A stretch of 64,000 nucleotides of DNA from Candidatus Woesearchaeota archaeon (GTDB taxonomy: Archaea > Nanobdellota > Nanobdellia > Woesearchaeales > UBA10216). Where the stretch lies: assembly GCA_016180065.1 (NCBI GenBank), contig JACPBY010000005.1:5541-69540 (forward strand). Reading direction: 5' to 3'. The notes beneath the pieces were generated by a model. It made no database searches and was not told where the DNA came from. It worked only from the letters and a program-made list of their open reading frames with translations. The position numbers and the translations under genes are program-made. Of this stretch, positions 18,994 through 28,200 are shown one piece after another (within the stretch, counting starts at the first letter, position 1; each line of letters opens with the position of its first letter).

Positions 18994-19156
18994 TGGGGAT
19001 GCAGGGATTTGAACCCTGGTCCGAGGCTTTCCACTCAGGGATAATCATCGCCTTCCTTTCAGCAGGCTCAGTTCTCCAATCACTGGAGGCCCCCATACTA
19101 CCGGACTGTACCACCTTGTGCCCTGTTAATGACGCAGGTGTTTGTACTACATCCCC
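18994..19156 (-). tRNA. trnW: tRNA-Trp(CCA) with two introns (D-loop 19106-19141; canonical 37/38 19029-19082)
   Basis: Acceptor GGGGATG/CATCCCC+A, D-stem GTAC/GTAT, anticodon arm GGGGC-CTCCAG^A-GCCTC, T-arm CAGGG-TTCAAAT-CCCTG. Removing 36 and 54 nt leaves a 73-nt cloverleaf. Confidence 0.92.
19029..19082 (-). ncRNA. Box C/D guide RNA inside the tRNA-Trp intron
   Basis: TGAT..TTGGAGAA-CTGA...ATGATTA...CTGA. TTGGAG is complementary to the anticodon loop and the D+5 rule lands on C34. Confidence 0.7.
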
Positions 19157-27816: not shown

Positions 27817-27829
27817 AAAAAAAGAAAAA
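27816..27829 (-). terminator. Oligo-T terminator for the putative antisense RNA
   Basis: Minus strand TTTTTCTTTTTTTT directly after the hairpin CGGGTTC-TGT-GAACCCG. Confidence 0.5.
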
Positions 27830-27875
27830 CGCGGGTTCACAGAACCCGGCTATTCTACTGGTTACCAGACTCTTA
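27830..27875 (-). ncRNA. Putative small antisense RNA complementary to the neighbouring tRNA
   Basis: AGAGUCUGGUAACC pairs 14/14 with 28137-28150. AAUAGCCGGGUUCUG pairs 15/15 (two G.U) with 28098-28112. Upstream TATA and downstream oligo-T are present. Confidence 0.6.
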
Positions 27876-27897
27876 TTATTGATTAAGTCTTAACTAG

Positions 27898-27911
27898 TAT
27901 TTAACATTTTC
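27898..27911 (-). promoter_or_regulatory. BRE-TATA promoter for the putative antisense RNA
   Basis: Minus strand GAAAAATG-TTAAATA, ending ~25 nt before the first complementary block. Confidence 0.55.
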
Positions 27912-28087
27912 TACGATTTCTAAAGTAGCAGCAAAAAATTTCCGAGAAAAACGAAAGTTTTACGTTTTTAAAGCTTAAAAAACGAAATAATTCCGCTGCG
28001 GTCGCAATTATTATTATTTTTTCGCAACATTTTCGTAAAATTCCCGCATAAGCTTATGAATTTCTGGAACAAAGATGTTGTGGGGCT

Positions 28088-28200
28088 GCCGCGGTGGCAG
28101 AACCTGGTTATTGCGCCAGCTTCAGAGGCTGGTGAGGGTTACCAGACTCTCATGTGGGTTCAAAACAGCTGAAGAAGCTGTGAAAATCCCGCCCGCGGCG
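28088..28200 (+). tRNA. tRNA with CAG anticodon, Ser-like body, and a 22-nt T-loop intron (28165-28186, position 59/60)
   Basis: Acceptor GCCGCGG/CCGCGGC+G73; D-stem GCAG/TTGC; anticodon arm CCAGC-TTCAGAG-GCTGG; 7-bp variable stem; T-arm GTGGG-TTCAAA^T-CCCGC; strict BHB (TTCA/TGAA helix, AAA and AAT bulges, CAGCT/AGCTG). Confidence 0.9.

Follow-up and report, generated by a model that had tools for sequence, protein, structure and literature searches.

A serine-type tRNA gene with a leucine anticodon and a predicted antisense partner: member of a candidate missense tRNA family in Woesearchaeota

In the CUG-clade yeasts, the codon CUG has been reassigned and sits at serine-type or variable positions, and the tRNA-Ser(CAG) of these yeasts carries G33 and m1G37. 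Nematode nev-tRNAs, class II tRNAs with glycine or isoleucine anticodons, are charged with leucine, and we know of no antisense partner for them. Small antisense RNAs act in type I toxin-antitoxin systems and other antisense-controlled systems such as hok/sok and ColE1 RNA I/RNA II, where the target is a peptide mRNA or a replication primer. The gene considered here (the candidate) lies at positions 28088-28200 (+) of a 64,000-nucleotide stretch, hereafter the window, of contig JACPBY010000005.1 from a Candidatus Woesearchaeota archaeon; it combines the body of a tRNA-Ser with the leucine anticodon CAG and is preceded by a partial copy of its own variable arm, which on the opposite strand looks like a small antisense RNA gene. 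The candidate resembles yeast tRNA-Ser(CAG) in its serine-type body, its CAG anticodon and a possible serine/leucine ambiguity at CUG, and differs from it in that CTG stays a leucine codon, a normal tRNA-Leu(CAG) coexists and the anticodon loop has U33 and A37. With the nev-tRNAs it shares the class II form and an anticodon at odds with the synthetase that recognizes the body, but those tRNAs are eukaryotic and have a leucine rather than a serine body. The likeness to hok/sok and ColE1 RNA I/RNA II would lie in a small, neighbour-specific antisense RNA in a divergent or opposite arrangement and in patchy, multi-copy, mobile modules, and loop-loop complementarity as in those systems is possible where the upstream copy includes the anticodon loop; unlike in those systems, the proposed target is a tRNA. 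Bacterial allo-tRNAs have serine identity together with highly diverse non-serine anticodons, including leucine and isoleucine ones, and seryl-tRNA synthetase (SerRS) ignores the anticodon (Mukai et al. 2017; PMC7609411, in the portion considered here). Serine identity elements and non-serine anticodons are likewise combined in the family to which the candidate belongs, but allo-tRNAs are bacterial and have a 12-bp acceptor/T domain arranged as 8/4 or 9/3, whereas this family is archaeal and 7/5, often has T-loop introns, shows a strong A35 bias and is accompanied by an antisense-type element, which the same portion of that source does not mention for allo-tRNAs (PMC7609411). A limited literature search found no archaeal or Woesearchaeota serine-type tRNAs with non-serine anticodons, no antisense RNAs against tRNAs and no archaeal antisense system with a tRNA target; should the coupled antisense module prove real, it would be a new kind of system.

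As its letters read, the interval 28088-28200 (+) holds a tRNA gene of class II that is intact and folds as a 7/5 cloverleaf. Exon 1 (28088-28164, +) holds the 5' strand of the acceptor stem, the D-arm, the anticodon arm, the variable arm, the 5' strand of the T-stem and the bases TTCAAA of the T-loop, and exon 2 (28187-28200, +) holds T60, the 3' strands of the T-stem and acceptor stem, and G73. The acceptor stem pairs GCCGCGG (28088-28094) with CCGCGGC (28193-28199), the discriminator G73 is at 28200, A14, G18, G19 and A21 are present in the D-arm, and the anticodon stem CCAGC/GCTGG gives the pair G30:C40. The 7-nt anticodon loop TTCAGAG (28121-28127) contains U33, the anticodon CAG (28123-28125, +), which reads CUG, and A37, and the long variable arm (28133-28153, +), a segment of which is copied upstream, has 21 nt, a stem of 7-8 bp including one G.U pair, and the loop TACCAG. 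An earlier note, made from the letters of the window, had listed the acceptor pairs, G73, G30:C40, A37 and a 7-bp variable stem, and each of these details was right wherever it could be checked. Shifted anticodon registers (33-35, UCA/UGA; 35-37, AGA) were rejected, since the 5-bp stem and 7-nt loop fix the register and the genome proved to hold the four true tRNA-Ser at other loci, and the variable arm was rejected as the true anticodon arm because its loops have 4-6 nt and no U33.

The T-loop of the candidate is interrupted after TTCAAA by 22 extra bases (28165-28186, +; position 59/60) before T60. By hand reading these form a bulge-helix-bulge motif with a 4-bp helix TTCA/TGAA and the 3-nt bulges AAA and AAT, in which the T-stem serves as the outer helix and the intron hairpin closes the motif, and cuts two bases into each bulge would restore the loop TTCAAAT. 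With the intron taken out by script, the gene is recognized by ARAGORN as a tRNA of 91 nt (anticodon cag) and folded by RNAfold into a five-arm cloverleaf; the genome also has a splicing endonuclease gene (PF01974 match, 99 bits, C18:30644-30904). The gene as read is a real, intron-bearing tRNA gene with predicted splicing. Non-canonical bulge-helix-bulge tRNA introns at 59/60 are known in archaea from the Thermoproteales, and the intron of the candidate, with its 4-bp helix and 3-nt bulges, is the same. It is ordinary for the lineage and not specific to the family: some family copies in relatives are without a T-loop intron, and some of the relatives' true tRNA-Ser have one.

Serine and leucine identity features were compared by hand across the genome, an assembly of 1.06 Mb in 23 contigs that is 88% complete. 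Because ARAGORN with introns allowed gave partly wrong models that terminated within the T-loop intron, the tRNAs of the genome were collected by a purpose-written scan that looked for a T-loop, an intron and an acceptor of 7 bp. The ordinary tRNA-Leu set found in this way is complete (UAA, CAA, UAG, GAG, CAG); all five genes begin with GCG and end with CGCA, giving A73, and all five have the variable loop TTAG, and A73 occurs also in the tRNA-Leu of relatives (L094 and L164). The four tRNA-Ser genes (GCU, UGA, CGA, GGA) all begin with GCC, end with GGCG, giving G73, and have introns adjoining the anticodon. The earlier note had expected GCC...GGCG for archaeal tRNA-Ser and A73 for tRNA-Leu, which holds in this genome without exception, and its proviso that the ordinary tRNA-Leu of the lineage might all carry G73 is contradicted by the five A73 genes. 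The acceptor stem of the candidate is identical to those of tRNA-Ser(GCU) and tRNA-Ser(UGA), and G73, the long variable arm and G30:C40 are all as in tRNA-Ser; a serine anticodon (NGA or GCU) is missing. From tRNA-Leu it has the anticodon, without A73 and with TACCAG in place of TTAG. The conflict between a CAG anticodon and serine identity elements, on which the earlier note had rested, is therefore confirmed against the five tRNA-Leu, and its question of whether an ordinary tRNA-Leu(CAG) is present can be answered: a normal one, with A73 and with G37 where the candidate has A37, lies at C18:153477-153658. In the portion of the literature source considered, SerRS relies strongly on G73 and G30:C40 as identity elements, leucyl-tRNA synthetase (LeuRS) of H. 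volcanii and of E. coli has G73 as an antideterminant, and archaeal leucine identity uses A73 and specific variable-loop bases, A47c/G47d in H. volcanii (PMC9976931). The genome encodes one SerRS (C21:22821-24086, full-length match to TIGR00414). By every identity feature compared, the candidate looks like a SerRS-type substrate with a leucine anticodon, as judged from sequence.

The interpretation given in the earlier note is supported in part; what it missed is that the gene is one of ten paralogs in a lineage-wide family. Ten genes of this genome have G73, a serine-type acceptor and an intron-free anticodon loop, with the anticodons CAG (five, including the candidate), AAG, GAG, GAU (two) and GAA; all ten read GCC...GGCG, as all four tRNA-Ser do, none has A73 or a TTAG loop, and all carry a T-loop intron. 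A covariance model (R1) was built from nine of the paralogs and gave matches in 41 of 41 related genomes, a figure that does not count the family since ordinary tRNA-Ser and tRNA-Leu are matched as well; the number of matches per genome varies from 2 to 16 within the genus. Eighty listed R1 matches were fetched, together with loci and their flanks, and 101 matches were aligned to R1. Among these 101, 78 were distinct G73 class II tRNAs with 7-nt intron-free loops, and their anticodon frequencies, biased by the sampling of the best model scores, were CAG 25, GAA 14, AAG 10, GAU 9, four each of CCU, UAU and GAG, two each of CAA and AAC, and one each of GUC, UAA, CUC and UGA. A35 was found in 71 of the 78, U33 in 72, a purine at 37 in 77 and a leucine anticodon in 42. 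At one syntenic family locus, two species have CAG and a third has CCU (for CCU, compare the loop CTCCTGA of L020); in this switch from CAG to CCU the intron and the 3' part stay near-identical, and the differences lie in the D-arm, the anticodon loop and the variable arm. Of the top R1 matches outside the order in a class-wide sample of 121 genomes, most were ordinary tRNA-Ser, and non-serine copies were also found in three other families of the class; in the more distant relatives, the loops of the family resemble those of true Phe and Ile tRNAs. On this evidence the candidate is a member of a multi-copy, serine-type "missense" tRNA family of Woesearchaeota (DPANN) with variable copy number, whose predicted anticodons mostly read hydrophobic NUN codons (Leu, Phe, Ile) and also those of Arg and others. 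The near-twin of the candidate, at C8:24339-24452 (+), has the anticodon GAU in a 6-nt loop, TGATAA, and its syntenic counterpart in the same genus (L016) has a normal CAG loop; the near-twin may have been disabled recently or may be in transition from one anticodon to another.

In six of the ten family genes of the genome, 11-22 nt of the gene's own variable or anticodon arm recur without a mismatch on the same strand, 48-228 nt upstream. In the candidate, the copy lies at -228 (27860-27876, + strand) and comprises 14 nt exactly, or 17 nt with one mismatch; the other four genes have weaker upstream copies, one of which extends over 58 nt and repeats the 5' part of the tRNA in degenerate form. 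No upstream arm copy was found at the four tRNA-Ser genes of the genome. Across 34 loci of the family (L037, L039, L041 and L043 stand outside these tests, which covered family loci only, and L040 and L042 were dropped from the copy analysis with upstream flanks below 100 nt), the upstream flank matched the core of its own tRNA above those of the other 33 in 29 of 34 cases, and the downstream flank in 2 of 34. An upstream score of at least 22 was reached by 28 of 41 genes with non-serine anticodons, by none of 24 with serine anticodons and by none of five A73 tRNA-Leu, with 0 of 41 in the downstream control; several anticodons in this count were assigned by hand from aligned loops, and L159 and the tRNA-Leu(CAA) at the start of C5 were dropped from it, having less than 150 nt upstream. 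In an independent sample, the class-level loci, which were chosen by model score only, the copy was found in five of seven non-serine genes and in none of the 17 serine-anticodon genes tallied. The copies also follow their partners: at one syntenic locus, the variable arm is different in each of the three species compared, with the upstream copy in every case matching the tRNA of its own locus, and the two variable-loop bases that differ between the candidate and its near-twin are both mirrored in their upstream copies. Retroposition was rejected as the source of the copy, since on neither strand does the A-tract stand where a poly(A) tail would be. A silent cassette or a donor for gene conversion was likewise rejected, because such a copy should differ from the expressed arm and this one is the same.

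On the tRNA strand, the upstream element has a constant order, namely an A-rich tract, a GC hairpin resembling a D-arm or an anticodon arm, and the variable-arm copy. The opposite strand accordingly reads antisense segment, hairpin and T-tract, and the same layout is found in relatives. At the candidate, the predicted antisense small RNA of ~60 nt runs on the minus strand from 27878 to 27817, with a 5' segment complementary to the variable arm of the tRNA, a hairpin at 27832-27848 (-) and a T-tract at 27817-27829 (-), and its predicted fold has -18.4 kcal/mol and a z of -3.1. A box resembling a B recognition element and TATA box (BRE/TATA; 27897-27912, -; regex match GAAAATGTTAAATA) faces the antisense segment and ends 21 nt before it. 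Of the 34 loci, 26 have an A-tract (9 or more A in 11 nt) in the 80 nt to the left of the copy and one has a T-tract there, and to the right of the copy an A-tract is found in two and a T-tract in four. At 22 of the 34 loci, a BRE/TATA-like signal (purine-rich box followed by an A/T octamer) no more than 55 nt away is directed toward the copy, and at 20 of these it ends 18-24 nt from the copy; the opposite orientation was seen at one of the 34. Where the copy includes the anticodon arm, its stem shows compensatory changes and its loop is kept. Read from the other strand, this loop would display the codon that matches. A search of Rfam with the antisense region gave chance-level matches only and no family. 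The upstream copy thus looks, on the opposite strand, like a small antisense RNA gene, and the RNA is probably transcribed. Most of the family genes examined have a putative small gene of this kind, in divergent orientation, with a predicted RNA antisense to the variable arm and D-arm of the partner tRNA and, in some copies, to its anticodon arm. This element is the only sequence evidence for the "conditional" element of the mistranslation idea put forward in the earlier note.

In the spacer between this element and the tRNA (window 27920-28045), there are repeated, partly palindromic motifs of the TTTCCG/CGGAAA and TTCG/CGAA types, which are conserved among paralogs (C17:49210-49440, C19:25590-25807, C10:4032-4260) and could be binding sites of a regulator. 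An AT-rich box of the GCATAA type about 28-41 nt upstream of the tRNA (28047-28064, +), seen by eye at several paralogs, might be the tRNA promoter, a weakly indicated assignment. Ordinary tRNA genes of the genome (four tRNA-Ser and one Asp) have another leader, consisting of a GGGTTGATAAGGG-type box, a short hairpin and CCCTTATT abutting +1 (for example, C13:11440-11485, C11:77320-77366 and C6:12600-12783), which stands threefold upstream of tRNA-Ser(GGA). The missense family is without this leader, and there appear to be two classes of tRNA promoter or leader in the genome.

The best reading of these features is a SerRS-type missense tRNA kept in check by its own antisense RNA, to which, taken whole, we give slightly less than an even chance. 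Its parts differ in standing, as serylation of the candidate is fairly probable, while a restraining role of the antisense RNA is a tentative and somewhat doubtful proposal. In the proposed sequence of events, the tRNA would be transcribed, its T-loop spliced and its CCA end added, and the folded tRNA would be charged by SerRS, which could accept a CAG tRNA because it does not read the anticodon; the serine-charged tRNA would then place serine at CUG. The antisense RNA would pair with the variable arm, the main handle for SerRS, and with the D-arm, and in some copies also with the anticodon arm, and so block folding and charging, and the tRNA would become active only once the antisense RNA falls away. 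Such a restraint is suggested by the finding that partner-specific antisense-type genes occur only at genes with non-serine anticodons. The module would behave as a toxin-antitoxin pair or as a switch for conditional mistranslation, and its patchy, multi-copy spread and private, fast-changing matching sequences do look toxin-antitoxin-like by analogy. A more specific form is an RNA-only toxin-antitoxin or abortive-infection module, in which a serine-charged toxin tRNA would misread CUG, CUU, UUC and AUC, a back-to-back antisense antitoxin would mask the variable arm and D-arm, and modules of ~0.4 kb would be mobile and multiply in Woesearchaeota; we consider this version rather unlikely as it stands. 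If the family is charged with serine, a whole archaeal lineage would carry up to about ten genes per ~1-Mb genome able to turn Leu, Phe and Ile codons into serine, which would amount to natural, widespread and built-in missense decoding beyond bacteria and yeasts. The antisense element offers a concrete idea of control, an RNA that hides a synthetase identity element, and possibly a new class of RNA-only addiction or defence system. Automatic annotation presumably labels the family as ordinary tRNA-Leu, -Ile or -Phe or misses it through the T-loop intron, and genes mislabelled or missed in this way would distort tRNA inventories and the inference of genetic codes in DPANN archaea. In addition, tRNA-antisense pairs with private matching sequences might serve as orthogonal parts for engineered translation.

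Several observations weigh against a serine-charged, antisense-restrained tRNA. Position 9 is a purine in nine of the ten family genes, as in tRNA-Leu, and C in three of the four tRNA-Ser, and the variable arms of the family are longer than those of the true tRNA-Ser; antideterminants against SerRS may be present in the family genes. The bias of the anticodons toward leucine-type and hydrophobic codons, already subject to the sampling bias given above, also fits charging with a hydrophobic amino acid. The CTG codon is common and is not avoided at conserved sites, and therefore either the candidate is not charged with serine or the insertion of serine is rare or tightly switched. With regard to the antisense element, 13 of the 41 non-serine genes fall below the copy threshold (some have weaker copies by eye), and a strand test by folding energy was indifferent, with the minus strand more stable in 16 of 35 cases, the plus strand in 17 and the two equal in two. 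In a matrix of duplex energies the antisense segment paired best with its own tRNA in 10 of 10 cases, a result that is partly circular because the copies had been found through their similarity to the tRNA.

The alternative that survives best, though we regard it as unlikely, takes the family as a tRNA-shaped selfish or regulatory RNA that is uncharged or acts off the ribosome, and the upstream copy not as an RNA gene but as the scar of a duplication or of an att-like integration event. Integration sites typically show partial direct repeats of tRNA genes, the indifferent folding-energy test gives the upstream element no preferred strand, and the range of 2 to 16 model matches within one genus would suit a mobile element. 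The synteny of the locus, which is also part of the patchy distribution cited for the main reading, is of the same kind, as the ~410-nt block that contains the antisense RNA gene, the spacer and the tRNA gene (27817-28226) is an insertion between the stop codon of a flavin adenine dinucleotide (FAD)-oxidoreductase gene and the conserved promoter of AglB/STT3. Orthologs of the oxidoreductase gene were found in 23 of 26 family genomes, this one (G000) included, and an R1 match was found at one of the 23 syntenic loci searched, namely that of G000 itself; in six same-genus genomes the block is absent, the oxidoreductase gene being followed directly by AglB/STT3 with no R1 match between them. For two family loci of relatives, likewise, the corresponding places in this genome are without such a tRNA, and no recurrent neighbouring protein gene was found beside the ten family loci. 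What speaks against an uncharged RNA are the canonical anticodon loops, with U33 and a purine at 37 nearly throughout the sample, and the strongly non-random anticodons, which in distant relatives sit in loops like those of true Phe and Ile tRNAs. The fixed layout of tract, hairpin and promoter, with compensatory changes in the hairpin of the upstream copy, and the way in which the copy tracks the variable arm of its partner at syntenic loci are not expected of a decaying scar.

A decidedly unlikely alternative is that the family consists of extra leucine tRNAs, which a bacterial-type LeuRS that tolerates G73 would charge with leucine; on this view, members with CAG, AAG or GAG would do no harm as additional isoacceptors, and those with Phe or Ile anticodons would cause only mild hydrophobic swaps. 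The sole LeuRS of the genome (C4:11711-14383, -) is indeed unusual for an archaeon, since it matches the bacterial-type model TIGR00396 with 1007 bits and the archaeal model with 310 bits, the latter over its C-terminal 370 residues only. Leucine charging would also agree with the 42 leucine anticodons and 71 A35 among the 78 sampled genes, with the purine at position 9 and with the free use of CTG. It is opposed by the body of the tRNAs, as A73 and the TTAG loop common to all five tRNA-Leu occur in none of the ten family genes, and the source, in the portion considered, reports that G73 acts as an antideterminant for LeuRS of archaea as well as of E. coli (PMC9976931). A full set of A73 tRNA-Leu is already present in the genome, the same scaffold also bears anticodons for Arg (CCU), Glu (CUC) and Asp (GUC), and a partner-specific antisense element would be left without a reason. 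As a separate observation, the LeuRS gene is possibly transferred or mosaic, and the tRNA-Leu(GAG) gene lies 2 kb away from it.

Misgivings about the reality of the gene could start from the tools, since ARAGORN at default settings found no gene in the window and Rfam at the gathering score found no match there, and from the defective-looking 6-nt loop of the near-twin on C8. The T-loop intron plausibly explains both misses, and a whole-genome search with RF00005 gave the candidate 38.7 bits against a cut-off of 29; with model R1 the score is 101.9 bits. In the alignment of nine paralogs, 99.5% of the cells pair, 8 of 24 pairs show compensatory changes, and the helix of the splice motif is kept in all nine, with 97% of its cells paired; this bears out the argument of the earlier note that intact stems and an intact splice motif speak against a decayed gene. 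The stretch, including the anticodon, shows no letter differences in contigs of four DNA runs from one groundwater study, which may include the source of the window itself and therefore give no independent support for the letters; a sequencing error in the candidate is unlikely. With all stems intact and genes of the same type in dozens of genomes, a decaying pseudogene or an assembly or sequencing artefact is very improbable and close to refuted.

The least probable alternative, a true code change in which CUG is read as serine, draws on the presence of five serine-body tRNA(CAG) genes against one tRNA-Leu(CAG), and is dismissed by that canonical tRNA-Leu(CAG) together with the codons themselves. 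When the 20 CTG codons of RpoA', a protein whose homologs are named Woesearchaeota, were compared with 119 homologs, the aligned residues were L at 0.74, I at 0.08, M at 0.07 and F at 0.06, and the TCN codons of the same gene aligned with S. Similarly, at the 54 CTG codons of the two genes that flank the candidate, the 17-19 orthologs have Leu codons in 62% of cases, Ile in 15%, Val in 6% and Met in 6%, serine being outside the six commonest residues (each at least 2%), and CTG is the commonest leucine codon in these genes (54 of 117). To judge from these alignments, CUG is a leucine codon by selection and the code is unchanged, so that a code change is already refuted at the level of selected codon meaning; the earlier note had said as much from CTG at conserved leucine positions, and RpoA' and the two flanking genes agree.

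Further observations concern the surroundings of the locus and the other tRNA genes. Just downstream of AglB and the glycosyltransferase genes, an open reading frame of 393 aa (window 32076-33257, +) has weak matches to ATPases of the AAA/STAND type, including a BrxC/BrxD-like match with E 1.7e-5, and is possibly defence-related. Non-canonical introns are abundant among the tRNA genes of this genome: in tRNA-Lys and tRNA-Asp the T-loop is interrupted at 59/60, tRNA-Ser(GGA) apparently has two anticodon-arm introns, and tRNA-Leu(UAA) has an anticodon-loop and a T-loop intron (loci of such tRNAs are C6:12784-12908 (+), C6:11742-11917 (+), C17:69115-69211 (-) and C17:69278-69387 (-)). The intron of archaeal tRNA-Trp encodes a C/D-box guide RNA, and something of the kind may apply to a second tRNA gene in the window, at 18994-19156 (-) (C14:24534-24696), which was also missed by ARAGORN at default settings and by Rfam at the gathering score. 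This gene has a 7-bp acceptor, A73, a normal T-arm and ~90 extra intron bases, and its insert contains CTGA- and GATGAT-like boxes with a weak C/D-box match (SNORD38, 18.8 bits, E 0.27), so that its intron possibly encodes a C/D-box guide RNA.

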